DNA from: Patescibacteria group bacterium
GTDB taxonomy: Bacteria > Patescibacteriota > Minisyncoccia > Portnoybacterales > GWB1-42-6
Length of the DNA: 35,592 nucleotides
Assembly (NCBI GenBank): GCA_022709865.1
Contig: JAKLIA010000001.1
Span: 1-35,592, forward strand
Direction: 5' to 3'
Every line of letters starts with the position of its first letter. Positions within the stretch are counted from its first letter, which is position 1. A model generated the notes under the pieces. It did not search any database and had not been told where the DNA came from. It saw only the letters and a program-made list of their open reading frames with translations. Below are positions 3,857 to 27,172 of the stretch, in pieces. A program made the translations under genes and the position numbers.

Positions 3857-4535
3857 AATAAATAAAAACGCCAATAACCAGCCAGAGCCGGCTAAACCCC
3901 TAAAAAACATTTTAAATCTAAACGGCTTATTAAATCGGCCGTCTACCGACAATCGCTGGAAAAAATATCTTTGGCTGTTATTAGTTATGGTCGTAGTAGA
4001 GGGAGGCGCTATTGCTTGGCTTTATTTTCTAAAACCCGTCTCGCCTTATTTTAAGCTTCTGCCTCAAGACACTGCCGTTTCTTCGTATTTTAACCAAACT
4101 TCGCTTTTAGCCTTGATAAAGTCCCAAAAATCCCTTCAACCAGATTGGCCGCCGCTAGCCTGGAGCGCCAACGCGCTGAAAGATTTTTTCTCTTTAGCTA
4201 AAATTGAGCAGCCAGAACAACTATTAACCGCCTTTTCAGACCAAATGGCGCTGGCTATTTTGCCTCAAAACCCCGATACTCCAGCCACTTGGCTTATTTT
4301 ATCTTCAATTAAAGCTCCTTCTGATATCTTTTCCCAAACCAGAGACAAAACCGAAGAAGGATTAAAACAAAACTTCAATCTAATAAACGAGTCTTATCGC
4401 CAGATCAAGATATCTCAGGTTCAGTCTCTAAATAAAGACAAACAAAGCCTTTTTTATGCCGCGGCTAACGGCTATTTTATCCTTACTAATGACCTTTCTC
4501 TAGCCAAGTCGACAATTGATAGGATAATTAAATAA
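3837..4535 (+). CDS. Membrane-anchored hypothetical protein
   Basis: 232-aa ORF overlapping the upstream gene by 20 nt. One N-terminal TM helix (YLWLLLVMVVVEGGAIAWLYFL). The C-terminal ending (FYAAANGYFILTNDLSLAKSTIDRII) resembles the ending of the 997..2925 product (YAILNNKLIFATSKDSMLAMIDRLL). Confidence 0.5.
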   Translation: MQPTQIKINKNANNQPEPAKPLKNILNLNGLLNRPSTDNRWKKYLWLLLVMVVVEGGAIAWLYFLKPVSPYFKLLPQDTAVSSYFNQTSLLALIKSQKSLQPDWPPLAWSANALKDFFSLAKIEQPEQLLTAFSDQMALAILPQNPDTPATWLILSSIKAPSDIFSQTRDKTEEGLKQNFNLINESYRQIKISQVQSLNKDKQSLFYAAANGYFILTNDLSLAKSTIDRIIK

Positions 4536-11078: not shown

Positions 11079-11144
11079 CCCTTGAAGCATTTTATAAATA
11101 ATTGCTTCCACCGGCGCCCAATCGTCTGTAAAAATGGGCGCTTT
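11067..11144 (-). pseudogene. Relic 3' end (25 codons plus stop) of a spermidine-synthase-like gene
   Basis: The minus-strand translation KAPIFTDDWAPVEAIIYKMLQGLKI* matches the C-terminus of the intact 12847..14340 product (KAPIFTDDWAPVEKITYRMLKGLNL*) at 19 of 25 residues. A TGA lies immediately upstream in frame (11145..11147). The relic overlaps the last 12 nt of rsmA. Confidence 0.55.
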
Positions 11145-11145
11145 T
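11106..11145. repeat. Copy 1 of a perfect 40-nt direct repeat; also a terminator-like hairpin downstream of rsmA
   Basis: TTCCACCGGCGCCCAATCGTCTGTAAAAATGGGCGCTTTT is identical to 12886..12925. On the plus strand GCGCCCA (11114..11120) pairs with TGGGCGC (11135..11141) and is followed by TTTT. Confidence 0.9.
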
Positions 11146-14340: not shown

Positions 14341-14394
14341 ACTTTTTTATAAGAATACCACTTTAAATCACCGAAAGATAGGGAAGCCTTTCTT

Positions 14395-14403
14395 TGTGGA
14401 TAA
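14395..14403. promoter_or_regulatory. Perfect consensus DnaA box (TGTGGATAA, reverse complement of TTATCCACA)
   Basis: Exact 9-mer, 17 nt upstream of the -35 region of the T4SS-like operon promoter, in the divergent intergenic region. Confidence 0.4.
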
Positions 14404-14420
14404 ATAAAGACAAAAATCAA

Positions 14421-14449
14421 TTGTTGACATGCTTAAAATACTGTATAAT
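14421..14449 (+). promoter_or_regulatory. Promoter of the 13-gene operon (TATAAT -10 with overlapping -35-like hexamers)
   Basis: TATAAT at 14444..14449. TTGTTG at 14421..14426 gives a 17-nt spacer and overlaps TTGACA at 14424..14429 (14-nt spacer). Only 7 nt separate the -10 from the ATG at 14457, which suggests a leaderless mRNA. Confidence 0.45.
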
Positions 14450-14456
14450 TAAGCAA

Positions 14457-15449
14457 ATGACAAATACTAAAAATCACTCGCGAAAGATCAGTTTGCTTGT
14501 GGCAATTTTAATATTGCTAACCGGCGTTTTTTTAGGTGGTTATTTAGTCTTAAAAAGCGGCCAAGTCTCTGCCGGCCAGCTCAGCGATATTTTAAAAGGA
14601 ACCACCCTTGATGCCACAACTTGCCAACCAAATGCTAACGATGCTAATAAAGACTCTGATGATGATGGGTTAAAAGATTGGCAAGAACTTCAAGTTTATT
14701 TTTCTGATGCCTGCAAAACCGATACTGATGGCGACGGCTATTTTGATGGGGAAGAAGTTTCTTCTGGATATGACCCAGCTAAAAAAGCGCCGGGAGACGA
14801 ATTGCCAGGCACCACGCCAAAAACTCCGCGCCCCCTGCCCTCTAACTTAACCATCGCCTTGAAACAAAAACTTTCCGAACAGTTAACCCAAGACAAAATT
14901 AGCTCTTTTGGCGCTGACGGCAACTTGCTTTCTTCTAGTGAACTAGAGGAGTTTCCCGGCATCCAGCAATCGGTTTGGGAAATAACCCAACATAAAGATC
15001 AGTTTTTTGCTCCAGACCCTATTGATGAAAATCAAATAAAAACGACTACCGATAATAGCCGGGGGTCTATCCAGCGCTACGCAGAAAAAGCCGCCGCCGC
15101 TATTCCGTCTTTATCAGAAAACCCACCAGTCGAAGAAACAGAAGCTGCTCTTTTTTTAACCGCTGTCCAAAACAACGATTTTTCCGAGTTAAATAGCATC
15201 TTATCGGTTTGCCAAACCGCTTATGCTAACTTAAAAAATCTCAATGTAGCCGTACCAACCGATTTATTATCTACTCATAAAGAGCAGTTAAATATGCTTT
15301 CCAGCTTAATTAAAATATATCTAGCAATAAAAGATATTAACACCGACCCGTTAAAAGCCAATCTTGCGATACAAGAATATGAAATAGTTTCTCTAGAAAT
15401 GAGCAACTGGCTGAAAAATGTTTCTAATATTATCTCCACACATCCATAA
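14457..15449 (+). CDS. Membrane-anchored secreted protein with thrombospondin-type-3-like Ca-binding repeats; first gene of the T4SS-like operon
   Basis: Start set at MTNTKNHSRK, because the ORF-track start at 14394 would overlap the promoter and DnaA box. TM anchor ISLLVAILILLTGVFLGGYLVL. Two Asp-rich loops (DSDDDGLKDWQE and DTDGDGYFDGEE). The remaining ~220 aa look helical with no known motif. Confidence 0.6.
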   Translation: MTNTKNHSRKISLLVAILILLTGVFLGGYLVLKSGQVSAGQLSDILKGTTLDATTCQPNANDANKDSDDDGLKDWQELQVYFSDACKTDTDGDGYFDGEEVSSGYDPAKKAPGDELPGTTPKTPRPLPSNLTIALKQKLSEQLTQDKISSFGADGNLLSSSELEEFPGIQQSVWEITQHKDQFFAPDPIDENQIKTTTDNSRGSIQRYAEKAAAAIPSLSENPPVEETEAALFLTAVQNNDFSELNSILSVCQTAYANLKNLNVAVPTDLLSTHKEQLNMLSSLIKIYLAIKDINTDPLKANLAIQEYEIVSLEMSNWLKNVSNIISTHP

Positions 15450-15460
15450 AAACGTTTTCT

Positions 15461-17482
15461 ATGATTAACTCTGGTCTATTTTTTAATAGCGCTTTCTCTC
15501 AACAACATTTTGCCCTTATTGTTCTTGTGGTTCTTCTGGCTAATTTAATTGTCGGCGGGGTTATGTTACCGTACCAGCAAAACCAACGAGCTCAGGCAAT
15601 CTGGTCTTCTCTCGCCGTTCAAATCCCCCAGTGGATAACAGAAGTATTAGATTATGTTTGGAGCGGAATTCAAGAAGCTTATACCGGCGCTCAAGCAGCA
15701 ATTTCTGCCGCTACAGCATTATGGGAAAAAGGAAATACTATTTTAAAAGAAGCAGCCAAGATTGCCTGGAACATTCTGAGAAAACAGCTGCTTAATATGA
15801 TAGTTAATGATATTGTTAAATGGATTCAAAACGGCACCACACCAAGGTTTGTGACTGATTGGCAAGGCTTTTTAACCAAAGCCGCCGACACAGCAGCTGG
15901 CAATTTTATAAGCCAATATCTTGGTATGGGCTTTTTATGCGACACCTTCGACTTTAAACTAAAAATTGCCCTATCAAAACCCCAAGAGTTTAATGAATCG
16001 GCCATTAAATGCACTCTTTCTAAAATAACCTCCAATATTAATAATTTCTTTAATAATTTTTCCAATGGCGGCTGGGCTGGCTGGATAGAGGTTTCTGAAA
16101 CCCAAAATAATATTATGGGGGCAACCCTGATGGTTCTAGACCAAAAATATGATGTAATGGCCAAAGCCCAAGAAGCGGCAAAAAATGAAGTATCCTCAGC
16201 TGCTGGGTTCGAAGGCGATAAAGTTTGTTCCCAAAGACAGTGTGTTGATCCTATGGTTGGCGAAACATACAAAGAGACCTATTCTGGCTCGTCTCTTGGC
16301 TGGACCAAAGAGCAGATGAGCTCTTCTTGCACCTGCTTGAAATGGGAAATTAGGACTCCGGGCCGAGTAGCCGGAGACGCTCTTTCGCAAGCTGCAGGCG
16401 TTGATATTGAAAATCTTATACAATCCAAAGAGTTTGCCGAATATGCCGCCGCGATTATTGATGCCGTCATTAATCGAGTTATCAAAGAAGGCGTAGCAGC
16501 GATGAAAACCGGAGCTGGCAGCTCTGGCGCATCGGGGCCAGGTATAACTACTGCGACACCTCCCATTGTGAACATCTCTCCGTATACCAACGCTTCAAAC
16601 GCCGGAGCAGAGATTAAGGCCCTCAATGCGCAACAAGAATTGCTAAAAGAAAACCTAAAAAACGTTATTACAGACTATCAAGCAAGCGTGAGCATCCTTG
16701 ATTCCATAAAAAACGCTCAAAATAATACTCTCGACAGCCTAAAAGACATTGTTCAAAATAATTGCACCGTACCTTCTGGAGTAACAATAACCCAAATCCC
16801 CAACACCCAAAGCACGTCCACCACCTGCGTTATAACTAACAATTACCGAGCTTGCCCTTGTACCGACACCCTTACAGAAAAAATTAAATTCACTATTCCG
16901 GGAACAGGGGAAGGTTTATTTTTAAAAACCACCAATCTACAATATAACACTATCACCGAATTTAATGTTTGCGAACTAAACCAAACAATAATTAAATACG
17001 AAAAAATATCCTCTTCCGTAGCCATTGAAAATGAAATAGCCTCCGTCAATAAAAAAATATCCGAACTTCAAGATACAATAACAAAAGTTGATATAGCGAT
17101 CAAAGACTCCCTAGATTATAAAAAAACGGCCGAAAATTATATGGCCCTCTATGAAGAATGGCAAAACAGCGGGGGATTAAATAATAATATCTCCACCAGC
17201 ACCGCGGAGACAGCCATGAATACTGCTAAGACCAAAGCAATTGCATCTAACCAAGCCTTACTTTCTAGCAGTTCTACCGATTTTAGCGACTTCACACAAG
17301 AAACAACTACAAAGTCTGGAAGAACAGCAACAGACCGACAAGAAATTATGACCAGAAAAGGATTCATACAAGATTGTGCTTATGCTCAATCTGGATCTTA
17401 TTATAAAGATCTCTGTAATGCTCAAACAGTTGAATTAACTTATAAAAACGCCCGGAATAGTTGCATGGGAGTAGACTTTTAG
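15461..17482 (+). CDS. Large Cys-containing extracytoplasmic protein, unknown family (operon gene 2)
   Basis: 673 aa with an N-terminal TM (FALIVLVVLLANLIVGGVMLPY). 14 Cys residues, several in CxC or Cx3C pairs. The C-terminal half has Asn/Thr/Ser-rich and coiled-coil-like segments. Confidence 0.6.
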   Translation: MINSGLFFNSAFSQQHFALIVLVVLLANLIVGGVMLPYQQNQRAQAIWSSLAVQIPQWITEVLDYVWSGIQEAYTGAQAAISAATALWEKGNTILKEAAKIAWNILRKQLLNMIVNDIVKWIQNGTTPRFVTDWQGFLTKAADTAAGNFISQYLGMGFLCDTFDFKLKIALSKPQEFNESAIKCTLSKITSNINNFFNNFSNGGWAGWIEVSETQNNIMGATLMVLDQKYDVMAKAQEAAKNEVSSAAGFEGDKVCSQRQCVDPMVGETYKETYSGSSLGWTKEQMSSSCTCLKWEIRTPGRVAGDALSQAAGVDIENLIQSKEFAEYAAAIIDAVINRVIKEGVAAMKTGAGSSGASGPGITTATPPIVNISPYTNASNAGAEIKALNAQQELLKENLKNVITDYQASVSILDSIKNAQNNTLDSLKDIVQNNCTVPSGVTITQIPNTQSTSTTCVITNNYRACPCTDTLTEKIKFTIPGTGEGLFLKTTNLQYNTITEFNVCELNQTIIKYEKISSSVAIENEIASVNKKISELQDTITKVDIAIKDSLDYKKTAENYMALYEEWQNSGGLNNNISTSTAETAMNTAKTKAIASNQALLSSSSTDFSDFTQETTTKSGRTATDRQEIMTRKGFIQDCAYAQSGSYYKDLCNAQTVELTYKNARNSCMGVDF

Positions 17483-17503
17483 TTTTTCTAGCGCCTTCCG
17501 TTT

Positions 17504-19345
17504 ATGCCAACCCTAACTAAAAACAAAAAAATCGCAATCGGTTTTATCTCGGTTTTTTTAGTTTTGGGTTCTATCTTTGTTTTTAATGTTTCCAACGCTC
17601 AAGCTGGCTTTCTTGATGCCATAACAAAGCCGGGGGATTTTGTAATGGAGGTGCTGGCGTGGGGAGCATATGGGATTTTATGGCTATTCAGCAAATTGAT
17701 AGCCATAGCAGCTTTTCTTTTGGAAACATCGTTCAAAATAGAGGACATCGGATTTACTAAGGCATCGATCGTAACTAACGGCTGGGAAGTAACCCGTGGG
17801 CTTTGCAATATGATATTTGCGCTTCTTTTATTATTAATGGCCTTTGACACAATTTTACAAACCGATAAGTTTCCGGTTAAGAGCATCCTACCCAAGTTAA
17901 TCATTGTTGCCCTAACAATTAATTTCAGCTTGATGCTCCTGGGCATTATTATTGATTTTTCCCAAATCCTCACGCGTTATTTCATCGATGCAGCCGGCGG
18001 TTCTTCCGGCAGCATTTCAGAACAATTAGCCAATAGCCTTAATATTGCCAAAGTTTTCCAAGTTAACACCAACCTCAACGACACTGCCAATATTCAAAAA
18101 AGTCTTGGTGGCGGCTCAGCTAGCCTGCTCCAAATATTTGGCACCCTGGTTTTTGGAATAGTAATCATATTAATTGCCACTTTTTCTTTAGCGGCCGGAG
18201 CAATTTTTATGCTCCTTCGATTAGTCTCTCTTTGGGTTTTATTGATTTTTGCCCCCATTGCCTGGATGGGCATGATAGCGCCCTTGCCGGGGCTAAAAGG
18301 TTTTATTGATGATTGGTGGAATAAGTTTTTTAAATGGACTTTCTTTGCGCCAATTTACGCCTTCTTTATTTATCTAGCTGTTTCCGTTGCCAGCGTTTCA
18401 AGCCTTTTTAATATTGGGTCATCGGCCACCCAAAAAGCTATAGGCAATGTATTTGTTAGTGATTTCTTATCGGATATAGGAAAGCTAATGCAGTATATAG
18501 TTGTTATTGCCCTGCTTATTATGGGCATCAAAACCGCCGAGCAAGTCGGGCTTTCAGGCGCTAACACCGTAGTTGGCTGGGGTAAAAAAGCGGGAAGCAA
18601 ACTAAGAAGTTTGCCTCAAAAAGCATTCGAGGCTACCGGCATTCCTGGAGGCGTCAAAGAGCGCTACGGAGAGCTCAAAGATAAATATCTGGCCGCTCCT
18701 CTAGCAAAGAGACAGGCGCAAGTAGCGACGGCTTTAGGCTCAAGCAGCGCCCTAGAAAAAAATATGAAAACCAGGGCTGGAGAATATGAGAAAAATAAAT
18801 CTTTGCCGGATATTCAAAGCCTGGCCAAAAGAGGGGACGCTTCAGCGGTCTATGCCCTAGCCAATATGGGAGAAATAGATGCAGCAACTTATCAAGCCTT
18901 CAGCTCTAACAACAAAAATGGGAAAATACAAAAATCAGTTGACGTAAAAGTTGGCAAAAAAAGAGCTGATCTCGTTGCTTTTAACAACGCCAAAGAGAAA
19001 GCCAAAAAGATCCTTAAAGAGAAAGCAACAGATCCTACTTATGCCGCAATTAAGGCCGCCAATCCAACATGGAGCGATAATGATATAGCGGAACAAATTG
19101 AAGACGACACCGTTGAACAAGAGATAGGGAAACTAACAACAGAAAAATTAACCGACCTAAAATGGTCCGAAATAGAAAAGAACTTGCTTTCTGGAAGTAA
19201 AGATAGGACCAGGATGGCATCGGCAACCTTTAAGTCTCTTAGCTCAATGATTAGCAAACCGGGGGTTCAAGCTGACCTTGCCAAAAGGTTAAGTCCAACC
19301 GATGCAGCAGCCATAAATAAATTAGTCGGCACAAATATAGTTTAA
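17504..19345 (+). CDS. Polytopic membrane protein, VirB6/TrbL-like by topology and context
   Basis: 613 aa. Signal peptide ending NAQA, then about 7 TM helices with a loop after TM1, then a ~250-aa Lys/Ala-rich hydrophilic C-terminal tail. The assignment rests on architecture and position next to VirB3/VirB4-like genes, not on a diagnostic motif. Confidence 0.45.
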   Translation: MPTLTKNKKIAIGFISVFLVLGSIFVFNVSNAQAGFLDAITKPGDFVMEVLAWGAYGILWLFSKLIAIAAFLLETSFKIEDIGFTKASIVTNGWEVTRGLCNMIFALLLLLMAFDTILQTDKFPVKSILPKLIIVALTINFSLMLLGIIIDFSQILTRYFIDAAGGSSGSISEQLANSLNIAKVFQVNTNLNDTANIQKSLGGGSASLLQIFGTLVFGIVIILIATFSLAAGAIFMLLRLVSLWVLLIFAPIAWMGMIAPLPGLKGFIDDWWNKFFKWTFFAPIYAFFIYLAVSVASVSSLFNIGSSATQKAIGNVFVSDFLSDIGKLMQYIVVIALLIMGIKTAEQVGLSGANTVVGWGKKAGSKLRSLPQKAFEATGIPGGVKERYGELKDKYLAAPLAKRQAQVATALGSSSALEKNMKTRAGEYEKNKSLPDIQSLAKRGDASAVYALANMGEIDAATYQAFSSNNKNGKIQKSVDVKVGKKRADLVAFNNAKEKAKKILKEKATDPTYAAIKAANPTWSDNDIAEQIEDDTVEQEIGKLTTEKLTDLKWSEIEKNLLSGSKDRTRMASATFKSLSSMISKPGVQADLAKRLSPTDAAAINKLVGTNIV

Positions 19346-19349
19346 CCTA

Positions 19350-20633
19350 ATGATAAAAGATTCTTTTATAAAATCTCTCCAAGAGTTTCAAGATGCCAAG
19401 AATTATAATCCTTGGCTTGTTTCTACTACAAAAAACCCGAGTGATGAAACGCCAGAAAAAGTAGAAGAAAGGCAAAAAAAGTTTTTGCAAATACCAGAAT
19501 CCGCACAAAACATATTAGCTTCACAAGATACAGCTAATATTATAAAAAAAATTAGCCAAGACCTTAAACTAACGCTTTGGCAAGCCGCTGAGATATCCCG
19601 ATCGGTCAGGGCTTATTATTTTAGAGAAATGGCCCCAGCAGAGATTATTTCTTCCTTAACAATAAACGCCGACATAGACACAAAGCGAGCCGAAGAGATT
19701 TACCAAAGGCTAGCCACAGAGATTTTTAATGCCCGCCTCGCCAGCCAAAGAAAATTGATCTATTTGCCTATAGATAAGGCCTTAACTGAATATCCCAAGA
19801 TAAAGAAACAAGCGATTAGCTCAAACCCAATTAAGATCCGCGGTTTCATCGATTTGGTCGCGCCTTCGGTTGAAAACTGGCTTCAAGATTATAAAGAGAC
19901 CGCTGGAGCTCAAGACCATGAGGCCGACGAAAGAGCGGAATATCTTTTTAACAGTCAAAACACCAAAAACCTAGCACAGCAAGACCGGCAACAGCTTTCT
20001 AAAGTAATTGAAGCCGTCGACGAGAACTCTACTATTGGGATAGATCCGGATAACCAACTAATCATTTTTGAACGGGCAGAAACAGAAAGCGAAGAAAAAC
20101 AGATAAAACCACAGCCAAGCATCCAGGCGGTTTTTAGCCAAAAAACTCTTCGCCAAATAGCTAAGGATAACAAAGATTTGCTAAACCAAAACCTAACTAG
20201 CGCCCCGATAAAAATTGCCGATTTTGAGCAACCGGTCCGCCCCACAATTAAAAATTGGCTGGTGGATTATGTAAAAATTAAAGGGGCCGGGCACCACGAA
20301 TCCCTGGAACGCGGCGATTATTTATTTAGTAACCCCAACGCCAAGCAATTATCAGAAACAGAGCGAAACTTAGTCTCGGCCATATTAAAAGCCTATGATG
20401 ATGATCTGCCTTTGCCTGTTAATGCTCAAGATCAAACTATTCTATTAGAAAATATAATAACAGAGAAAACAATTGCCCAGGCGCCTATTTCGGCCACCTC
20501 CTTAAATACTCCCAGCGGCTACCGAGAACCAATTGCCAAAGAAGATTTAATCGGGCCGCTAAAGAACCAAACACCACCGAAAAACACGCCCAAATTAAGC
20601 GGCAATATCATTGATTTAAAAGATATACAATAA
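19350..20633 (+). CDS. Soluble hypothetical protein with an internal ~85-aa duplication (operon gene 4)
   Basis: 427 aa with no TM. Repeat A covers aa ~157-241 (PIKIRGFIDLVAPSVENWLQDYKETAGAQDHEADERAEYLFNSQNTKNL...). Repeat B covers aa ~283-367 (PIKIADFEQPVRPTIKNWLVDYVKIKGAGHHESLERGDYLFSNPNAKQL...). Confidence 0.6.
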   Translation: MIKDSFIKSLQEFQDAKNYNPWLVSTTKNPSDETPEKVEERQKKFLQIPESAQNILASQDTANIIKKISQDLKLTLWQAAEISRSVRAYYFREMAPAEIISSLTINADIDTKRAEEIYQRLATEIFNARLASQRKLIYLPIDKALTEYPKIKKQAISSNPIKIRGFIDLVAPSVENWLQDYKETAGAQDHEADERAEYLFNSQNTKNLAQQDRQQLSKVIEAVDENSTIGIDPDNQLIIFERAETESEEKQIKPQPSIQAVFSQKTLRQIAKDNKDLLNQNLTSAPIKIADFEQPVRPTIKNWLVDYVKIKGAGHHESLERGDYLFSNPNAKQLSETERNLVSAILKAYDDDLPLPVNAQDQTILLENIITEKTIAQAPISATSLNTPSGYREPIAKEDLIGPLKNQTPPKNTPKLSGNIIDLKDIQ

Positions 20634-20636
20634 TTT

Positions 20637-20921
20637 ATGCGCTTTAATGTTCCGCAATTCGTTGATATTGAAGATACCATTATTGGGCCGCTAACGCTTA
20701 AACAATTTTTTCTGGTGATTGGCGGGGGAGTTGTGATCGCTATCTTGTGGTATATGTTCAAGCTTTGGTTTGTTTTTTTATTAGGCGTGCCTTTGGCGCT
20801 GGTTATTATAGCGATAGTCTTTGTTAAGATAGGTGGCCGGCCCATTACCCAAATTTTTACTTCTTGGCTGAATTATTGGATCAAACCCAGATTTTATACT
20901 TGGAAAAAAAGTAATAAATAA
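20637..20921 (+). CDS. PrgI/VirB3-like small membrane protein
   Basis: 94 aa. N-terminus MRFNVPQFVDIEDTIIGPLTLKQFF is followed by two TM helices. This is the pattern of PrgI-family (VirB3-analogue) proteins that precede VirB4 in Gram-positive-type T4SS. Confidence 0.6.
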   Translation: MRFNVPQFVDIEDTIIGPLTLKQFFLVIGGGVVIAILWYMFKLWFVFLLGVPLALVIIAIVFVKIGGRPITQIFTSWLNYWIKPRFYTWKKSNK

Positions 20922-20932
20922 TAATTTATTTT

Positions 20933-21562
20933 ATGGCTGCTCCGGTGCAACAAAAAATTGTGGTTGAAGAAATAAAAGAGGGGGTTGTTATCTTAAAAGG
21001 CGGCGATTTGCGCGGCGTTTTAATGGCTTCTTCTATTAACTTTTCTTTAAAATCCACCGATGAACAAGATTCTTTGATCTTTAAATACCAAAGTTTTTTA
21101 AACTCCCTTGATTTTCCTATTCAGATATTAATGGCCTCTCGGCATTTGAACATCGAAGAATACTTGGCTTCTGTTGAACAAAAAAGAAAAGAGCAAGACA
21201 ACGAATTATTGCAAATCCAAATCGCCGAATATTATGATTTTATAAAAAACTTAGTTGAGGTCGGCAATATTATGGACCAATCTTTTTTTGTTGTTGTGCC
21301 CTTGGCGCGCGTAGAAAAAAAAGAATCTGGAATAATTGAAAAATTAGGGATATTCCAAAGCTCAAAACCCAAAGGAAACGAAGAAACCAAGAGCTTTGAC
21401 GAATTAAGAGTTCAGCTTTGGCAAAGGCTAGAGTATGTGGGTTCGGGCCTGGCCGGCATAGGTATAAAGTCCACCATCTTAAATACAGAAGAATTAACCC
21501 AACTTTTCTATCGAATGTATAATATGGGCTCAAAAAATGTGCCCACCACCCCAAAAGAATAA
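20933..21562 (+). CDS. Hypothetical protein resembling a stand-alone VirB4 N-terminal-type domain
   Basis: 209 aa. The segment IVVEEIKEGVVILKGGDLRGVLMASSINFSLKSTDEQDSLIFKYQSFLNSLDFPIQILMASRHLNIEEYL follows the same pattern as the N-terminus of VirB4/TraE-type ATPases. It is in the same reading frame as the downstream VirB4 gene, separated by two stop codons. Confidence 0.45.
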   Translation: MAAPVQQKIVVEEIKEGVVILKGGDLRGVLMASSINFSLKSTDEQDSLIFKYQSFLNSLDFPIQILMASRHLNIEEYLASVEQKRKEQDNELLQIQIAEYYDFIKNLVEVGNIMDQSFFVVVPLARVEKKESGIIEKLGIFQSSKPKGNEETKSFDELRVQLWQRLEYVGSGLAGIGIKSTILNTEELTQLFYRMYNMGSKNVPTTPKE

Positions 21563-21592
21563 TCAAAAAAATAATTCCTGCACTTCATCTTT

Positions 21593-23404
21593 ATGCCATT
21601 TGATTTTTTCAAAAAACCAAACCCCGCTATAAATAATCCAGCAGTAAATCTGTCTTCGCCTTTTGAGGGCTCGCCGGAAACCAGCGGCCCCACAATAAAA
21701 GATTTGATCTCGCCAGCGGGCATTAAAATAGAATCTAGCTATCTGCAAGTTGACCAAAAACTTGCCCGCACCCTTTTTGTTTTTACTTACCCCCGGTATT
21801 TGTCCACCAATTGGTTCTCGCCGATCATGTCCCTGGATAAAGAGTTCAATGTCTCCATGTTCGTGCACCCGATAGAAACCCCTTGGATAATGAACCAGCT
21901 AAAGAAAAAAGTGGTTCAAGTCCAATCACAAATCAATGAACGCCAAGAAAAGGGGCAAGTGAGAGACCCGATGCTAGAAACAGCTTTAAATGATATTGAA
22001 GCTCTCCGGGATAATTTATTGCAGGGCAATGAAAAGTTTTTTAAGTTTGGCCTTTATATCACTATTTTTGGCGATAATGAGAAAGAATTAAATGACCTGG
22101 AAAATGAGATGCGCTCTCTCCTTGAAGGCCGCATGGTCTATATCAAGCCCGCCTCCTTCCAGCAAGAACAGGGCTTTAATTCCACTTTGCCAATGGCTAA
22201 AGACGAGCTACAGATCCACACTTCAATGAATACCGGGCCCCTCTCCAGTACCTTTCCCTTTGTCTCGGTCAATCTATCTGATAACAAAGGAGTTTTCTAC
22301 GGCATTAACCGGCATAATAATTCCTTGATCATTTTTGACCGTTTTAGTCTGGAGAACGCCAACGCCGTGGTTTTTGCCAAATCCGGCTCTGGCAAAAGCT
22401 ACACGGTTAAATTAGAGGTTTTGCGTTCTTTAATGATGGGAACGGACGTTATTATTATTGACCCGGAAAACGAATACCAATATCTAGCTGAAACCGTCGG
22501 CGGCTCTTTTATAAAGGTCTCTCTTAATTCCCCAAACCACTTAAACCCCTTTGACCTGCCAATTCCAGCCAAAGGAGAGCAGCCCGGAGACGTTTTGCGC
22601 TCTACCATAATTACCTTGGTAGGATTGTTGCGTATAATGCTTGGGGGCATTTCAGCAGCCGAAGATTCTATTATTGACCGCGCTATCAGCGAAACTTATG
22701 CTTCACGGGATATCACTCCGCAATCGGATTTTTCTAAGATCACTCCGCCGCTGCTTTCTGATCTTTATTCCATTTTAAAAAATACCGAAGGTGGCGCTTC
22801 ATTGGCTTCGCGCCTGGAACGTTTTATTACCGGGTCGTACTCGGGGCTATTTAATCAGCACACCAATGTTGAATTAAAAAATAAATTAATTTGTTTCTCT
22901 ATCCGCGATATGGAAGATGAGTTGCGGCCTATCGCCATGTACGTAGTGCTGCACTATATCTGGAACACCATTCGAGGCGAGCTTAAACGGCGAATCCTGG
23001 TGGTGGACGAAGCCTGGGTTATGATGCGCCACGATGATGCCGCCTCTTTCCTTTTTGGCATTGCTAAGCGTTGCCGTAAATATTATTTAGGGCTAACTAC
23101 TATCACACAAGACGTCGCTGACTTTATGAACTCGCCCTATGGCAAACCGATCGTCACCAACTCCTCGATGCAGATCCTTCTGCGCCAATCGCCGGCCACT
23201 ATTGATATTATTCAAAAAACCTTCAACCTAACCGAGCAAGAAAAATATTTATTGCTGGAATGCGGAGTGGGGGAGGGAATATTTTTTGCTGGGCTGCAGC
23301 ATGCCGCAATAAAAATTACCGCTTCTTATACCGAAGACCAGATCATAACTTCCGATCCGCGACAATTATTAAAAATCGAGAAAGCTAAAGAAGAATTAGC
23401 TTAA
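21593..23404 (+). CDS. virB4: VirB4/TraE/PrgJ-type T4SS ATPase
   Basis: 603 aa. N-terminal domain ISPAGIKIESSYLQVDQKLARTLFVFTYPRYLSTNWFSPIM, Walker A VVFAKSGSGKSYTVK (around nt 22384), DPENEY, Walker B RRILVVDEAW (around nt 23000) and GLTTITQDVADF. Confidence 0.8.
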   Translation: MPFDFFKKPNPAINNPAVNLSSPFEGSPETSGPTIKDLISPAGIKIESSYLQVDQKLARTLFVFTYPRYLSTNWFSPIMSLDKEFNVSMFVHPIETPWIMNQLKKKVVQVQSQINERQEKGQVRDPMLETALNDIEALRDNLLQGNEKFFKFGLYITIFGDNEKELNDLENEMRSLLEGRMVYIKPASFQQEQGFNSTLPMAKDELQIHTSMNTGPLSSTFPFVSVNLSDNKGVFYGINRHNNSLIIFDRFSLENANAVVFAKSGSGKSYTVKLEVLRSLMMGTDVIIIDPENEYQYLAETVGGSFIKVSLNSPNHLNPFDLPIPAKGEQPGDVLRSTIITLVGLLRIMLGGISAAEDSIIDRAISETYASRDITPQSDFSKITPPLLSDLYSILKNTEGGASLASRLERFITGSYSGLFNQHTNVELKNKLICFSIRDMEDELRPIAMYVVLHYIWNTIRGELKRRILVVDEAWVMMRHDDAASFLFGIAKRCRKYYLGLTTITQDVADFMNSPYGKPIVTNSSMQILLRQSPATIDIIQKTFNLTEQEKYLLLECGVGEGIFFAGLQHAAIKITASYTEDQIITSDPRQLLKIEKAKEELA

Positions 23405-23409
23405 AACTT

Positions 23410-23757
23410 ATGCCGGAAACAGATAATAAACAAACGAACGAAAAACAATCCACCCCCTTCCCCTCAGGCATGCTTTGTTTGGCTATTTTATTTGATCTGA
23501 TCGGCTTGGTTCCTATTCTTAATTTTTTTACTGAAACTCTGGCCGGATTAATCTTTGGCATGTGGCAATCTTCTTATAACCCCAAGCTTGATCCGGTTCT
23601 TTCTTTCTTTATAGCCAAAATAATTGATGTTGCCTCGCTTGGGATCTTGCCCAGCAACACCGGCATTGTTGTTTATTCTTATCTAAAAAAGAAAGCAGCC
23701 AGCGCGGCACAAACTCCTGCGGGAATGGCCCTGGCCAATAAAATGCTAAAAAGCTAA
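23410..23757 (+). CDS. Small membrane protein (operon gene 8), unknown function
   Basis: 115 aa with 2-3 hydrophobic helices (MLCLAILFDLIGLVPILNFF, LAGLIFGMW, IIDVASLGILP...IVVYSYL). 5-nt gap from virB4. Confidence 0.5.
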   Translation: MPETDNKQTNEKQSTPFPSGMLCLAILFDLIGLVPILNFFTETLAGLIFGMWQSSYNPKLDPVLSFFIAKIIDVASLGILPSNTGIVVYSYLKKKAASAAQTPAGMALANKMLKS

Positions 23758-23761
23758 AAAT

Positions 23762-24511
23762 ATGCTCAATAAAATTAAAAAATCAATTCTCATAAATCTC
23801 TTGCTGTTAATCGCACTAATTAGCATTGGACTTTATATTGCCGAGCAAACACCCAGCGCCAACGCCGGCACTAATGATTTTTTAATGACCTGGTCCAGCA
23901 ATTCTTATATCCCGCCGCAATACGCCGGCAAGGCTTTGCCTACCATTGGAACAACAGTAGAAATAGTGGTTTTGCCTGTTAAAAAACTTTCTCAAGACGC
24001 AGACGCTTTTACCTATCTTTGGGTGTTAGATGGTAAACAAGCCTATTCTTCCCAGGGGAAAGGAAAAAGCTCTTTCCAATTCCAAATTACCAAATGGGAC
24101 GGGGATAAACATGAAGTCGAAGCTCGGGTGTTAGACGCACAAGAAAATATGCTTTGGCGGGGATTTTTAACTATAAAAGTCCGGCAGCCGCAAATATTAT
24201 TTAACACGCCAAACAACAACTATGCTGTTTCCGAATCTATGTCGGTGAACACAGGAAAAGAACTGACAATTTATGCTATTCCTTTATTTTTCCGCGCCAA
24301 CAAGATTTCAGATCTGGTTTTTAATTGGCAATTAAATGAACAAACCCTAACTCCCGCGCTAGGGGAGCAAAACCCGGACAAGCTGATCATCAAGGTTCCG
24401 GCTGGCACTTTATCTGGTTCTGTTTTTAAAAATCTGTCTTTGTCTATTCAAAATCCGCTAGATGCCCTGCAGCAAATATCCGCCGGCTTAAACATAGAAA
24501 TAAAACAATAA
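23762..24511 (+). CDS. Membrane-anchored secreted protein with two beta-sandwich-like repeats (operon gene 9)
   Basis: 249 aa with an N-terminal TM (ILINLLLLIALISIGLYIA). Two ~90-aa segments share an FxYxWxLDG-like pattern (FTYLWVLDGKQ and LVFNWQLNEQT). Confidence 0.5.
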   Translation: MLNKIKKSILINLLLLIALISIGLYIAEQTPSANAGTNDFLMTWSSNSYIPPQYAGKALPTIGTTVEIVVLPVKKLSQDADAFTYLWVLDGKQAYSSQGKGKSSFQFQITKWDGDKHEVEARVLDAQENMLWRGFLTIKVRQPQILFNTPNNNYAVSESMSVNTGKELTIYAIPLFFRANKISDLVFNWQLNEQTLTPALGEQNPDKLIIKVPAGTLSGSVFKNLSLSIQNPLDALQQISAGLNIEIKQ

Positions 24512-24515
24512 ACTC

Positions 24516-25388
24516 TTGCCTCATTTTTTCTCAAAAAATAAATTGTTTCTTTTCTGTTTGGCAGGCTGGTTTCTGTTCTTTTTCGCTAGCAATGTCTTGG
24601 CGGCCGGCTATGAGCTAGAAGTTAAGCTCCCCGGCATGCCCGATTCTGTTTCCGACCCGGGGGCATACATGAGGTATCTTTTTATCTTCGGCGTATCTTT
24701 AGCTGGATTCCTGGCAGTAGGCATGATCATCTATGGCGGAGTAAAATATATGCTAGCAGCTTCTGTGGGCTCAACCCAAGATGCCAAAGATAAGATCTTA
24801 GGGGCTTTGGGTGGAGTCGCCTTGATACTTTGTTCGTATTTATTGCTCTATACTATTGATCCGAGCTTAACGAATCTGTCGCCCCTGCCGGTAAGCCAAA
24901 TTATGGCCGCTGATGTGGAAGCTCCCAGCCCTCAAGACTCCGGCCTAACCGAAGCCACCACTGCAACCGCGACTGGAACAGGAGAGCTTGCTTGTAAAAC
25001 CAATAAAATATGCCAAGACATAGAAAGTGGAAAAGTAAGCTCTACTTTGACCAACAGCCTCCGCTCTTTGCCGGTCGAGGTCACCGTTACCGAAACAACC
25101 GGCAGCCACGGTTGCGCTTCCTCTGATAGCTGTGTTTCTGGCGCTGCCTGCGGCACTTCAACGCATTGCAGCGGCAACGCAGCTGATATCAGGGTCTCTA
25201 ATTTAACTACTGAACAAAAAAAAGAAGTAATGCAAAGTCTTAGCCAAAATAAATGCGTTGACCAGCTTTTTTATTCCGGGTTTCCGGAATATTGCAAGGC
25301 GGGCGGCGGGCAGAATGCCTCAAAAAGTAAAAGCTGCTCCGCCCATTCCGACCATATTCACTACAGCGTTAAATCCGGCTGCACTTAA
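24516..25388 (+). CDS. VirB2/TrbC-like pilin hairpin fused to a Cys-rich M15/LAS-type peptidoglycan-hydrolase-like domain
   Basis: TTG start; there is no in-frame ATG before the conserved module. Signal peptide ...ASNVLAA. Two TM helices flank a short polar loop (YLFIFGVSLAGFLAVGMIIYGGV - KYMLAASVGSTQDAKDKI - LGALGGVALILCSYLLLYTI). The C-terminal ~165 aa have 12 Cys and the motifs STHCSGNAAD (SxHxxGxAxD, nt 25158..25187) and DHIH (nt 25350..25361). Confidence 0.65.
   Translation: MPHFFSKNKLFLFCLAGWFLFFFASNVLAAGYELEVKLPGMPDSVSDPGAYMRYLFIFGVSLAGFLAVGMIIYGGVKYMLAASVGSTQDAKDKILGALGGVALILCSYLLLYTIDPSLTNLSPLPVSQIMAADVEAPSPQDSGLTEATTATATGTGELACKTNKICQDIESGKVSSTLTNSLRSLPVEVTVTETTGSHGCASSDSCVSGAACGTSTHCSGNAADIRVSNLTTEQKKEVMQSLSQNKCVDQLFYSGFPEYCKAGGGQNASKSKSCSAHSDHIHYSVKSGCT
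24630..24884 (+). repeat. Copy 1 of a 255-nt pilin-module direct repeat
   Basis: Aligns without gaps to 25505..25759 (offset 875 nt) with 7 mismatches, all synonymous. The encoded 85 aa are identical. Confidence 0.9.
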
Positions 25389-25399
25389 ATTAAAAAATT

Positions 25400-25978
25400 A
25401 TGAGCCCTACTCTTAATAAAAAAATCATTGCCTTATCCTTCGCCGGCTTATTTTTACTGTTGGCTGCTCCTGCTTGCTACGCCTATAAAGTAGAGGTTAG
25501 TTTGCCCGGCATGCCCGATTCCGTCTCCGACCCGGGGGCATACATGAGGTATCTTTTTATCTTCGGCGTATCTTTAGCCGGATTCCTGGCAGTAGGCATG
25601 ATCATCTATGGCGGAGTGAAATACATGCTAGCAGCTTCTGTGGGCTCAACCCAAGACGCCAAAGATAAGATCTTAGGGGCTTTGGGTGGAGTCGCCTTAA
25701 TACTTTGTTCGTATTTATTGCTCTATACTATTGATCCGAGCTTAACGAATCTGTCGCCCAACATTAAACCCGTAGGTAATATTTCCTCTCCGTCAGAAAC
25801 CCCCCGTTATGGCATAACCACCACAGAAACAACAATTACTCAATACTTTGATTCTACTGCAGTAAACTATAATACAGCAGAAAAATGCGAAGCAATCGGA
25901 AAAAGCTCCTATGGAAGCCGTTTTGTCAGTTCCACTTTTAATAGTCAAAATTGCATAATTACAATAAAAAAATTATAG
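25400..25978 (+). CDS. VirB2/TrbC-like pilin paralog with a short unrelated C-terminal domain
   Basis: 192 aa with a signal peptide ending ACYA. The 85-aa pilin module (PGMPDSV...SLTNLSP) is identical to the upstream paralog. It is followed by a ~70-aa Thr-rich tail with 2 Cys (GITTTETTITQYFDS...CEAIGK...NCIITIKKL). Confidence 0.65.
   Translation: MSPTLNKKIIALSFAGLFLLLAAPACYAYKVEVSLPGMPDSVSDPGAYMRYLFIFGVSLAGFLAVGMIIYGGVKYMLAASVGSTQDAKDKILGALGGVALILCSYLLLYTIDPSLTNLSPNIKPVGNISSPSETPRYGITTTETTITQYFDSTAVNYNTAEKCEAIGKSSYGSRFVSSTFNSQNCIITIKKL
25505..25759 (+). repeat. Copy 2 of the 255-nt pilin-module direct repeat
   Basis: See copy 1: about 97% nucleotide identity and 100% amino-acid identity. 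Confidence 0.9.
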
Positions 25979-25993
25979 TAATATTATAAGATT

Positions 25994-27172
25994 ATGAATA
26001 CAAAAAAAATATTGATCATCGCTTCAATTTTATTGGTTCTGTCATTGGGCGCTCTTTTAGTTTATAATTTATTTTTTAAACCTTCTTCCACCGAAACAAC
26101 GGAAAACGGCAGCACCCTGCCAACCTCCAGCGGAGGAAGCAACGGCTCTAACTCCTCTTTGCCAAACAGCAGTAATTCTAGCGGCTCAGGCAGCCAAACA
26201 GACTCAAAGATCAGGGTTCTTAGCAAAGAGCCGGTTTTATCACCAACCATGGGCGAAGACGGCAAAACTATTAAATATTATGTCAGTTCAAATGGCAATG
26301 TTTTTGAATCAGACTTTCTGGGCGCCAACATTAAAAAAATCTCTTCTGTTGCCTTAAACGGCCTATTGAAAGCCGTCTGGTCGCCAGATAAAACTAAAGT
26401 GATCGGCTTTTTCTCTGATAACAATAAAATTAAAAAATATTTCTACGATTATAACAATAAGCAGTCTTCTTTGCTTAACGAAAAAATGGGAAACGTTGCC
26501 TGGTCGCCGGATAGCAAGCGCATTGCTTATCAATTTGTTGACGCAACCACCGGCCAGCACAATATCAGTATAGCCAACCCTGATGGCTCTAATTGGAAAA
26601 ATATTTTCAAAACTCGCCTGGACGATTTGATCGTGGAATGGCCGGGAAAAGAAAAAATATCTATTAGGCAGGCTCCCAGCGGCTTAGCCCAAGGCATACT
26701 TTATGCCATCAATTCCGAAACCGGCGACTTCAATAAAGTTTTAAGCGATATTTTTGGTTTAAATGTTAAGTGGTCTCCCAAGGCTGATAAAATCCTTTAT
26801 TCAGCCACCAACGACCAAGGAAAAAATCCTAAACTATATCTAACCGACAGCACCGGCACTAACCAAAAAGACCTGAATCTTTCCGGCTTGATAGACAAGT
26901 GCGTTTGGAGCACCGATGACCGGACTATTTTTTGCGCCTTGCCAAAAGAACTTTCCGCTAATGCCACTTGGCCAGATGATTATTATAAGGGTATTGTCAT
27001 CCTAGCGGACGACTTCTATAAAATCAACCTCGAGACTAACGAAAAAACAAAAATCCTGGGCTCCACCAGCCAGATCAGCTTTGATGCCCAGGAATTAATT
27101 ATTTCGCCAAAAGAAGACTACCTATTTTTTGTTAACAAGCACGATGGCCTGCTTTATAGCCTAAAAATATAA
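25994..27172 (+). CDS. Membrane-anchored TolB-like (PD40/WD40-like) beta-propeller protein; last gene of the operon
   Basis: 392 aa. N-terminal TM, then a Ser/Gly/Asn-rich linker (SSGGSNGSNSSLPNSSNSSGSGSQ). Repeated (V/A)WSPD-type blades follow (AVWSPDKTKV, VAWSPDSKRIAY, VKWSPKADKILY, CVWSTDDRTIF). Confidence 0.65.
   Translation: MNTKKILIIASILLVLSLGALLVYNLFFKPSSTETTENGSTLPTSSGGSNGSNSSLPNSSNSSGSGSQTDSKIRVLSKEPVLSPTMGEDGKTIKYYVSSNGNVFESDFLGANIKKISSVALNGLLKAVWSPDKTKVIGFFSDNNKIKKYFYDYNNKQSSLLNEKMGNVAWSPDSKRIAYQFVDATTGQHNISIANPDGSNWKNIFKTRLDDLIVEWPGKEKISIRQAPSGLAQGILYAINSETGDFNKVLSDIFGLNVKWSPKADKILYSATNDQGKNPKLYLTDSTGTNQKDLNLSGLIDKCVWSTDDRTIFCALPKELSANATWPDDYYKGIVILADDFYKINLETNEKTKILGSTSQISFDAQELIISPKEDYLFFVNKHDGLLYSLKI

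Follow-up and report, generated by a model that had tools for sequence, protein, structure and literature searches.

A run of closely spaced genes near the replication origin of a Patescibacteria chromosome, among them one for a VirB4-type ATPase, raises the question of which kind of machine it encodes, whether it belongs to a mobile element and what it moves. We analysed the surrounding stretch of 35,592 nt (the window). The initial annotation had described a 13-gene co-directional operon with gaps of 3–30 nt; the co-directional run and the gaps were found as described, but the operon consists of 12 genes on the + strand (14457..27172). The same 12 genes were called independently on three other assemblies, each 100% identical to the window. 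From gene spacing alone we infer a single transcript; promoter and terminator scans of the window were at chance level. The operon is a genuine type IV secretion (T4SS) locus, of a kind already described for Patescibacteria (CPR), and its genes are as follows.

14457..15449, + strand: gene 1, surface protein anchored by a single TM segment, with a calcium-binding repeat of the TSP3 type (PF18884)
15461..17482, + strand: gene 2, extracellular protein anchored at its N-terminus, evolving fast and containing 14 Cys (topology, AF2)
17504..19345, + strand: gene 3, VirB6/TrbL-like polytopic protein with a hydrophilic C-terminal extension, or 'extended VirB6' (topology, orthologue match)
19350..20633, + strand: gene 4, acidic cytoplasmic protein with a duplicated ~120-aa internal domain (repeat alignment)
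20637..20921, + strand: gene 5, small PrgI/VirB3-like protein with two TM segments (PF12666)
20933..21562, + strand: gene 6, TrsD/TraC-like, homologous to the N-terminal domain of VirB4 but encoded separately (NCBIfam, PF26593)
21593..23404, + strand: gene 7, VirB4 ATPase of the monoderm CD1110/MPF-FATA-like kind (NF045971)
23410..23757, + strand: gene 8, small membrane protein with 2–3 hydrophobic segments (hydrophobicity)
23762..24511, + strand: gene 9, N-terminally anchored or exported, beta-rich protein (sequence read by eye)
24516..25388, + strand: gene 10, signal peptide, VirB2-like pilin module (residues ~39–121), Pro/Ser linker and M15/hedgehog-type (LAS) zinc peptidase (profiles, motifs, Foldseek)
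25400..25978, + strand: gene 11, signal peptide, pilin module and small Cys-containing C-terminal domain (module identity to gene 10)
25994..27172, + strand: gene 12, TolB-like beta-propeller protein, membrane-anchored through a segment followed by a Ser-rich linker (TIGR02800)

The motor and channel parts are supported by profile searches to differing degrees. Gene 7 matches the VirB4 model NF045971 at 3.5e-118 (395.9 bits, exceeding the cut-off of 325) and carries both expected motifs, Walker A (AKSGSGKS, residues 262–269) and Walker B (ILVVDE, at 468); it also matches P-loop_TraG in Pfam (3.8e-27) and, in a PDB profile search, 4ag5 (1.1e-42) and TrwK (5.5e-6). Within the operon it is, as claimed, the sole ATPase. 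The VirB4 protein aligns at model positions 182–728, and gene 6 at positions 2–107 of the CD1110 VirB4 model (NCBIfam, 3.4e-5); this match and that of gene 6 to TrsD (1.4e-6) are both sub-cut-off, and a protein identical to gene 6 has a precomputed PF26593 TraC-like match. Gene 5 exceeds the gathering score of PF12666 (E 1.5e-8, 35.5 bits against 27) and adjoins the TrsD-like gene in all relatives compared. Gene 3 has ~7 TM or hydrophobic segments, as annotated, followed by a ~265-aa C-terminal tail. The window protein has no Pfam match of its own; its VirB6 assignment follows from the L003 orthologue (36% identity, E 3e-84), which matches TrbL (PF04610) at 5.9e-5, slightly under the gathering score, and from the agreeing topology. 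Homology shows four putative machine parts to be present: VirB4 (gene 7), a TrsD/TraC-like protein (gene 6), PrgI/VirB3 (gene 5) and a VirB6/TrbL-like protein (gene 3).

Genes 10 and 11 had been read as two VirB2-like hairpins, one with a cell-wall-hydrolase-like domain, and this reading was borne out. Their pilin modules are identical at 86/86 residues, with nine nucleotide differences, all synonymous. An identical module shared by proteins with differing C-terminal cargo was not found described in the literature searched. Gene 10 itself matches T4SS_pilin weakly (3e-3), and for VirB2, as for VirB6, the window proteins stay under the Pfam gathering score. Profile support comes from relatives: PF18895 matches 83 of the 105 long module-family members scanned (best 9.8e-28). 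The family comprises 11,892 representative clusters, and its modules group by genome, not by cargo. A Mycoplasma ICE pilin-like protein was also matched weakly among the operon products. In gene 10, H217-x6-D224 and H280-x-H282 are invariant among 14 homologues, 10 of which match M15_3 (best 1.4e-4). The top 16 PDB profile matches, without exception to hedgehog N-domains, align at the zinc motif (E 0.3–1.7), and Foldseek against BFVD returned Peptidase M15A, hedgehog and cell-wall hydrolase proteins with probability 0.94–1.0; against the PDB, neither of two predicted models gave a significant Foldseek match. The cargo slot of gene 10 is occupied by SLT in L003 and L010, and YkuD is attached to the same pilin module in P0142 and P0143. 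C-terminal domains of 70–170 aa on pilin-like proteins might prevent packing.

The remaining products are largely membrane or surface proteins. Seven genes had been regarded as unclassifiable; three now have a family assignment, namely 14457 (TSP3), 20933 (TrsD/TraC-like) and 25994 (TolB-like), and the other four (15461, 19350, 23410 and 23762) gave no family match in profile searches. Gene 1, with one TM segment, exceeds the PF18884 cut-off of 25 at 27.8 bits, and L001, L003 and L005 have positionally equivalent orthologues (55/47/29% identity). Gene 12, with one N-terminal TM segment, matches TIGR02800 TolB at 1.1e-10, below cut-off (orthologues 74/57/44% identical); its 3' end overlaps a convergent wzy-like gene by 41 nt, an overlap repeated in relatives. 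Structure prediction, suggested earlier for the unclassified genes, was confident for the C-terminal half of gene 2 (AF2, pLDDT >90 for residues ~370–670), predicted as long helices and a three-stranded sheet, and nothing significant was retrieved by Foldseek or PDB profile search. Gene 2 is only 35/37/29% identical to its orthologues, compared with 85/76/67% for VirB4, and could act in host contact or as a stalk. It was also considered as a second ATPase, which the lack of a Walker A motif rules out. Gene 4 has no TM segment, and both its repeats align to the single copy of the L003 orthologue; gene 8 orthologues share 57/51/27% identity. Gene 9 keeps its position in relatives and, by that position alone, resembles SEML1_0004/0005, the Ig-like proteins of S. 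epibionticum. Read by eye, gene 9 has the appearance of two repeated beta domains.

Two further features lie upstream of gene 1.

14395..14403, − strand: perfect DnaA-box consensus TTATCCACA, ~20 nt 5' of the −35-like element
14421..14449, + strand: promoter-like region with −35-like TTGTTGACA and −10 TATAAT at 14444–14449

The generic promoter scan left this region unlisted because of its spacer rule; the −10 element is kept in all four aligned lineages. As it ends only 7 nt 5' of ATG 14457, gene 1 is suggested to be leaderless or nearly so, a prediction from sequence. ATG 14457 is most likely the start of gene 1; an ORF extended to the TTG at 14394 would span the promoter-like region. As a candidate site for regulating this promoter, the DnaA box is only a lead. 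L001 has a perfect box at the equivalent place, L003 has one on the opposite strand with a single mismatch, and in L005 the box is absent. Over the whole window, DnaA boxes are not above chance.

Whether the locus is mobile can be judged from its content and neighbourhood. CD1110, TrsD and PrgI all point to conjugation machinery as the source of its parts, as would be expected if the operon belonged to an integrative conjugative element (ICE), either as a working part or as a relic. However, in profile searches none of the large ORFs of the window matched a relaxase, T4CP, VirB11 or integrase family; the window also contains no tRNA genes, and no repeats were found flanking the operon, in line with the absences reported initially. 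The flanks are core genes, as had been noted, and dnaA (33363..34739) lies 6.2 kb past the operon end. When gene order was compared as the initial annotation had proposed, it proved to be conserved together with both flanks (ksgA ... operon ... wzy-wzy-flippase-jag-yidC-yidD-rnpA-rpmH / dnaA) in three other Patescibacteria lineages, L001, L003 and L005, indicating a core locus and not an ICE. VirB4 is the region's most conserved gene, with 67–85% identity between the window's protein and those of these lineages, more than its housekeeping neighbours YidC or KsgA, and G+C is uniform over operon and flanks with no compositional step. The locus is chromosomal, core and fixed near the replication origin, and is not a conjugative element, as first proposed; that it is a part or relic of an ICE we regard as extremely improbable. 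Very probably it is a vertically inherited chromosomal T4SS typical of Patescibacteria, in which conjugation functions were lost from MPF-FATA monoderm machinery, a confidence that applies to the identity of the system and leaves its cargo aside. All matches with a source name are from Portnoybacteria, Parcubacteria or Patescibacteria (one is named only 'bacterium'), which supports a reduced-genome Patescibacterium; the initial annotation had spoken of a reduced-genome episymbiont.

What the machine moves is a separate matter. The initial annotation had likened it to the ComB DNA-uptake system of Helicobacter pylori, acting with ComM in natural transformation. ComB likewise works without relaxase, VirD4 or VirB11, all missing from this locus, and has VirB2/3/4/6-like parts; comM is present in the window, and the VirB4 is weakly and partly similar to the archaeal DNA importer CedB (3.1e-11, far under cut-off and limited to the P-loop region). 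The analogy does not hold further. ComB belongs to a diderm and depends on VirB7–10-type outer-membrane parts (ComB7–10), none of which, nor any VirB8-like/NTF2 protein, was recognised among the operon products, consistent with the annotated lack of VirB8/9/10-like proteins; and the operon's VirB4 belongs to another subtype, that of monoderm conjugation systems. The argument from proximity fails too, as comM (5400..6941) is 7.5 kb from the operon with five unrelated genes on both strands intervening, and transformation in S. epibionticum requires ComEC together with type IV pili (PMC12857230). That species tolerates deletion of comEC, but its T4SS is essential (PMC12857230; PMC12102498), so the essential T4SS role is not transformation. 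DNA import was raised as one possibility by Quinonero-Coronel 2025 (PMC12102498); for this operon we consider ComB-like uptake quite improbable. Alternatively, the operon could export effectors or enzymes, pushing proteins that include the pilin-borne wall hydrolases onto or into the host, on the model of antibacterial or Gram-positive effector T4SSs. Protein export was suggested by Wang 2023 because coupling protein and relaxase are missing (PMC10633639), and the lineage-dependent wall-cutting domains (M15, SLT, YkuD) and fast-evolving surface parts would suit such a role. Against it, neither a T4CP nor a recognisable effector with a secretion signal was found in the locus, the hydrolase-bearing proteins have Sec signal peptides and so can cross the membrane without the T4SS channel, and in one cultured Patescibacterium host RNA was observed to move toward the parasite (bioRxiv 10.64898/2026.06.21.733656). 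We rank export second, and rather unlikely.

Ranked above export is a host-contact conduit that takes up macromolecules from the host cytoplasm, RNA or DNA, to supply nucleotides, a reading we hold tentatively; what probability remains falls to other or structural roles. In a cultured Microgenomatia strain, host RNA uptake and tubular parasite-to-host structures have been observed (bioRxiv 10.64898/2026.06.21.733656), and S. epibionticum cannot grow epibiotically without its T4SS genes, among them those for pilins, for lysozyme-like proteins and for a protein with a DD-peptidase fold (PMC10633639). The host-contact filament first suggested for this locus agrees with the field's proposals (PMC10633639, PMC12102498, PMC12857230, bioRxiv 10.64898/2026.06.21.733656). 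As to how the machine most likely works, whatever its cargo, the products of genes 3, 5, 6 and 7 would, judging by their homologies, form a cytoplasmic-membrane motor and channel. By analogy with other T4SSs, VirB4 would extract the Sec-inserted VirB2-like modules of genes 10 and 11 from the membrane, and these may assemble into an extracellular tube or stub. The C-terminal cargo domains would ride on this structure or be released, and presumably cut peptidoglycan, either in the cell's own wall during assembly, in that of the host where the two cells touch, or in both. Outside the cell, the membrane-anchored surface proteins of genes 1, 2, 9 and 12 could serve as a scaffold or for adhesion. 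Genes 2, 3 and 9 change rapidly, as expected of host-facing parts.

The identity of the system is ordinary for the phylum, its architecture, lack of a relaxase and dnaA/ksgA/rnpA vicinity having been published in 2023–2025. Quinonero-Coronel et al. 2025 described the same component set, relaxase-free and near dnaA/ksgA/rnpA, in ~2,400 genomes (PMC12102498), with VirD4-like genes located elsewhere in most; a T4CP may likewise be encoded at a distance from the present operon. The published Patescibacteria T4SSs (PMC12102498; S. epibionticum ML1 SEML1_0004-0019, PMC10633639) share with this operon VirB4, TrsD-like, PrgI/VirB3, VirB6 and VirB2-like pilins, the absence of a relaxase or adjoining T4CP, the chromosomal position near dnaA, ksgA and rnpA and, downstream of virB4, wall-hydrolase genes that include a domain of the hedgehog/DD-peptidase fold, along with surface proteins rich in beta structure. 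Unlike them, the operon has no recognised NTF2/VirB8-like protein. It has two pilins with an identical module, whereas Saccharimonadia arrays have about six divergent ones, ~25% identical on average (PMC12102498); its DD-peptidase domain is fused to the pilin module, compared with a 1,113-aa protein in the S. epibionticum system, and its PrgI has 94 aa against 300 aa there. Gene 2 and the TolB-like propeller components are not discussed in PMC12102498 or PMC10633639.

Among monoderm MPF-FATA systems (CTn2 CD1110, pGO1 Trs, pCF10 Prg, ICEBs1; Mycoplasma ICE Mbov_0395/0397), likeness extends to the best curated VirB4 model, CD1110, followed by Mbov_0397, to the TrsD and PrgI homologues, the weak Mycoplasma ICE pilin-like match and the operon-encoded wall hydrolase. 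In contrast to these systems, the operon is not mobile, is without relaxase, T4CP (PcfC, ConQ or TcpA type), oriT and integrase, and has VirB2-like pilins, which are generally missing in Gram-positive systems (PMC12857230). Like the T4SS cell-wall hydrolases VirB1, PrgK, CwlT and TcpG, gene 10 provides an operon-encoded peptidoglycan-cutting domain with an N-terminal hydrophobic membrane tether. Here, however, a whole VirB2-like pilin module does the tethering and recurs, residue for residue, in a second paralogue, and the enzyme class attached to it varies by lineage (M15/LAS, SLT, YkuD).

Twelve co-directional genes on the + strand make up the type IV secretion (T4SS) locus, which runs from 14457 (14394 with a TTG extension) to 27172, with intergenic gaps of, in order, 11, 21, 4, 3, 11, 30, 5, 4, 4, 11 and 15 nt. 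The window is matched at 100% identity, over 11.6-33.4 kb, by three other public assemblies, and because gene callers give the same 12 genes in them, the 13 genes counted in the initial annotation are one too many. A generic promoter and terminator scan gave counts at shuffle, or chance, level, so the apparent single operon is judged from spacing and conserved gene order only. Rfam returned no matches within the window. At the downstream end, gene 12 shares its last 41 nt (27132-27172) with the 3' end of a convergent wzy-like gene, and there is therefore no space for an intrinsic terminator; in L001, L003 and L005, the loci of three other Patescibacteria lineages, this overlap is 41-44 nt in the first two and longer in the third.

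At the upstream end, a conserved TATAAT at 14444-14449 stands 7 nt ahead of ATG 14457, and a -35-like element, TTGTTGACA, is also found upstream of this codon (promoter-like region 14421-14449). Since both elements sit just upstream, ATG 14457 is the likely start, and gene 1 may be leaderless. The same region carries a further element:

14395-14403, - strand, perfect DnaA box in the operon promoter region, just upstream of the promoter-like element

L001 has a perfect copy at the matching site and L003 a copy with one mismatch, and L005 lacks the box. Such a conserved box would tie expression of the operon to replication status, pointing to direct replication coupling rather than gene dosage alone; no mention of a DnaA box in the operon promoter was found in the literature searched. 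Clustering of DnaA boxes was also considered as evidence for oriC and was rejected, the window-wide count being not above chance.

The motor of the predicted machine is the best-defined part. Gene 7 (21593..23404) encodes a VirB4 ATPase with Walker A (AKSGSGKS) and Walker B (ILVVDE) motifs, which matches the CD1110-family model NF045971 at 3.5e-118 (395.9 bits, cut-off 325), Pfam P-loop_TraG at 3.8e-27, the solved Gram-positive-type VirB4 (PDB 4ag5) at 1.1e-42 and R388 TrwK at 5.5e-6. Its best 120 homologues all show 65% identity or more, and the named ones are all Patescibacteria except one ('bacterium'). The sequence relationships indicate a VirB4 related to the MPF-FATA class and probably lying within the Patescibacteria clade. 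Gene 6 (20933..21562), directly upstream of virB4, had been listed in the initial annotation as having no recognisable family, which is not so, as it is TrsD/TraC-like. It matches NF041427 TrsD at 1.4e-6, below that model's cut-off, and VirB4 N-domain models at 7e-7 and 3.4e-5, and a protein identical to its product has a precomputed PF26593 TraC-like match. Because genes 6 and 7 cover different parts of the CD1110 VirB4 model (the N-terminal 107 positions and positions 182-728, respectively), the VirB4 N-domain is here a protein of its own. The product of gene 5 is PrgI/VirB3 (PF12666, 35.5 bits; gathering score 27). The gene 3 protein of the window gave no family match of its own; about seven hydrophobic/TM segments are predicted in it, with a hydrophilic C-terminal tail of ~265 aa, and a 36% identical orthologue matches TrbL at 5.9e-5 (23.4 bits, under the cut-off of 25.9). 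Gene 3 is probably VirB6/TrbL-like. The structural reading first given to this locus, that of type IV secretion-like parts, was right.

Among the other genes, gene 1 contains a TSP3 calcium-binding repeat and gene 12 encodes a membrane-anchored TolB-like propeller. Profile searches gave no family match for genes 4, 8 and 9. A ~120-aa domain is duplicated internally in gene 4 (19350..20633) and occurs once in the L003 orthologue (332 aa); those of L001 (339 aa) and L005 (290 aa) are likewise short. PDB sequence searches with genes 2, 3 and 4 yielded nothing usable. The AF2 model of gene 2 is confident in the C-terminal half only, comprising long helices and a three-stranded sheet, and gave nothing significant by Foldseek against PDB (E <= 0.001) or by PDB profile. 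Three candidate identities of gene 2 were rejected: a second ATPase, the weak KaiC match being noise because Walker A is absent; a VirB8-like protein, for which the NTF2-like Foldseek matches were too weak (probability 0.6-0.8, TM 0.26-0.29); and DotF (E 0.015), the PDB profile being otherwise coiled-coil noise.

The operon occupies a conserved chromosomal position. L001 (Ca. Portnoybacteria GCA_028710785.1), L003 and L005 share the order ksgA, a variable gene, the TSP3 protein, gene 2, VirB6, gene 4, PrgI, TraC-like, VirB4, gene 8, gene 9, pilin(s) and propeller, followed by convergent wzy-wzy-flippase-jag-yidC-yidD-(rnpA)-rpmH and divergent dnaA, so that order and flanks alike are kept. The window itself has the classical arrangement of rpmH-rnpA-yidD-yidC-jag and dnaA. 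Among the large ORFs of the window, none gave a relaxase, T4CP, VirB11 or integrase family, and the window shows no tRNA and no compositional step; att-like repeats flanking the operon were sought, and only short, chance-like matches came up.

Identity (%) of window proteins to their L001 / L003 / L005 orthologues
VirB4: 85 / 76 / 67
YidC: 79 / 68 / 56
KsgA: - / 61 / 48
TrsD-like: 74 / 65 / 52
Propeller: 74 / 57 / 44
PrgI: 61 / 57 / 47
Gene 2: 35 / 37 / 29
VirB6: 37 / 36 / 33
Gene 9: 41 / 34 / 27

As judged from these identities, the cytoplasmic motor is very strongly constrained and the exposed parts diverge fast.

Two other features of the window were recorded. A 72-nt direct repeat, 90% identical between its copies (11074-11145 and 12854-12925), brackets a 1.78-kb segment with a UbiA-family gene; one copy forms the 3' end of a fused MFS/spermidine-synthase gene and the other lies between ksgA and the UbiA-family gene. 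The latter gene looks like an insertion, because in L001 ksgA directly precedes the synthase gene. Three overlapping co-directional genes at 997..4535 encode proteins of 642, 314 and 232 aa, the first of them rich in Pro and Ala, with a single TM segment; Pfam, NCBIfam and PHROGs gave no match for any of the three, and core genes set them apart from the T4SS operon.

Genes 10 (24516..25388) and 11 (25400..25978) both encode a cleavable signal peptide followed by a two-helix hydrophobic hairpin, with the helices at 48-79 and 87-114 in the AF2 prediction. Both match Pfam T4SS_pilin (PF18895) at E 3e-3, below the gathering score. The 90-aa pilin module (query 24621-24890) retrieved 11,892 representative clusters, and PF18895 was matched by 83 of the 105 long module relatives scanned (best E 9.8e-28). 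The module family, the signal peptide and the two hydrophobic helices identify these as VirB2-like pilin genes near virB4. The mature products, ~260 and ~165 aa, exceed the ~70-120 aa of VirB2/TrbC pilin because of their C-terminal domains, here called cargo. A length of at least 200 aa is reached by 106 of the best 150 module relatives, and 2-9 tandem modules occur in some (four in the homologue P0180, nine in P0236). The cargo recognised among module relatives (P0180-P0324) comprises SLT (9 proteins), Lysozyme_like, SLT_2, YkuD and Big_12. No mention of fusions of a pilin module to cargo was found in the literature searched. In the window, the two copies are as follows:

24605-24884, + strand, pilin module of gene 10
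25480-25759, + strand, pilin module of gene 11, with the same amino-acid sequence and a different C-terminal domain

The two modules are identical at 86 of 86 residues and differ at 9 nt, all of them synonymous (0 non-synonymous). In L001 (12961-14547) the paired modules are identical at 88/88 residues with 2 synonymous differences, and in the related contig L009 (3001-4560) the two are 80% identical; in L010 (3001-4650), another such contig, an assembly gap with identical flanks stands in place of the second module. From one genome to another, module identity is only 59-66%, though the M15 cargo is orthologous. The modules thus group by genome (100, 100 and 80% within, 59-66% between) and not by cargo: the module shows concerted evolution while the cargo diverges, which is consistent with gene conversion together with purifying selection. 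A further contig, L002 (6684-7352), has a VirB4 protein identical to that of L001, yet one chimeric pilin gene where L001 has two; the chimera has the signal peptide of pilin gene 1 ahead of the shared module and the cargo of pilin gene 2 after it, and is either a product of module recombination or a repeat-collapse artefact of metagenome assembly.

Zinc ligands of the pattern H-x(3-6)-D and H-x-H are typical of LAS/peptidase M15 enzymes (hedgehog/DD-peptidase fold). Across 14 homologues, the C-terminal domain of gene 10 keeps H217-x6-D224 and H280-x-H282 without variation, and an SxHxxGxAxD-like motif is present. M15_3 matches 10 of these 14 homologues (best 1.4e-4, below the gathering score), and the top 16 matches in a PDB profile search are hedgehog N-domains, aligned on the zinc motif at E 0.3-1.7. 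Foldseek against BFVD returned Peptidase M15A, hedgehog and cell-wall hydrolase (probability 0.94-1.0, E 0.016-0.06), while the AF2 model gave no match against PDB with E <= 0.001; the one match from PHROGs, a marginal endolysin, was to gene 10. Gene 10 is accordingly annotated as carrying a predicted LAS/M15-type zinc peptidase domain. In relatives, an SLT domain occupies the cargo slot of gene 10, and other module relatives bear YkuD. It is conceivable, if unlikely, that the VirB2-like module is an interchangeable carrier within a mixed T4SS filament that is set with wall-cutting enzymes and serves to drill into the host envelope. Under such a scheme, tandem paralogues in this Paceibacteria-type lineage may keep an identical polymerisation module and differ in cargo (M15 peptidase, SLT glycosylase, YkuD transpeptidase, small Cys-rich domains), and recombination between modules may add or remove cargo. 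The modularity of pilin and enzyme, with concerted evolution, offers a testable idea for a filament breaching the host wall, and also marks host-facing parts.

Taken together, VirB4, TrsD-like, PrgI and the probable VirB6, assigned by homology, would form a membrane motor and channel, and the subunit that polymerises would probably be the Sec-exported VirB2-like module. The machine would build a surface structure carrying or releasing wall-cutting enzymes, and the fast-evolving surface proteins would contact the host.

A ComB-type DNA-uptake T4SS is defined by a VirB7/8/9/10-like envelope core together with VirB4. The initial annotation had drawn an analogy with ComB that is not borne out: profile searches gave no VirB8/9/10 family match in any operon protein, so the VirB7-10 parts that define the system were not found, and the VirB4 is of a different subtype. 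Its supporting link to comM is mere co-occurrence, 7.5 kb away across five unrelated genes on both strands. Transformation-type DNA uptake is quite improbable for this operon; in S. epibionticum, deletion of comEC abolishes competence but not viability, and the essential role of the T4SS is therefore not transformation (PMC12857230). Conjugation is barely credible. The relaxase, coupling protein, integrase and att boundaries of an ICE are not found in the window, and synteny is kept; the initial statement that this is not a conjugative element or ICE was right.

As to cargo and direction, import of host nucleic acid or cytoplasm is the reading that we tentatively adopt, and it may well prove wrong; protein export through the T4SS is somewhat unlikely. 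Import of DNA or other macromolecules is what the authors of a Patescibacteria-wide survey propose (PMC12102498), and a 2026 preprint on a cultured Microgenomatia strain reports host RNA uptake and tubes that 'may be T4SS pili' extending into the host. The host-contact filament offered initially as an alternative to DNA uptake agrees with current opinion, which is not proof from the window.

Apart from that of the Patescibacteria, no T4SS is known to be essential for the growth of the cell that owns it. The T4SS that Wang et al. 2023 (PMC10633639) described in S. epibionticum is unusual, Gram-positive-like and equipped with pilins; it has no recognisable coupling protein or relaxase and is essential in co-culture. 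The need for it in epibiotic growth is known only for S. epibionticum ML1, by Tn-seq. Next to virB4, the structure-based table of that study places Ig-like proteins, lysozyme-like domains and a hedgehog/DD-peptidase-fold domain. In the survey of Quinonero-Coronel et al. 2025 (PMC12102498), 2,417 of 3,035 Patescibacteria genomes have VirB4, most of it in a single clade nested within MPF-FATA. Their clusters include TrsD, PrgI/VirB3, VirB6 and VirB2-like pilins, rarely a relaxase, and often lie near dnaA, dnaN, rnpA, ksgA and rpmH (PMC12102498), a picture restated in a 2025 review (PMC12857230). The window matches the kind described, with no relaxase or T4CP in the cluster and a site near dnaA, ksgA and rnpA. 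Its T4SS is a real, correctly recognised and already described system, and because the same system has been published, the operon is one more member of that kind: a further clean case, from the little-studied Paceibacteria side, that leaves the general picture unchanged.
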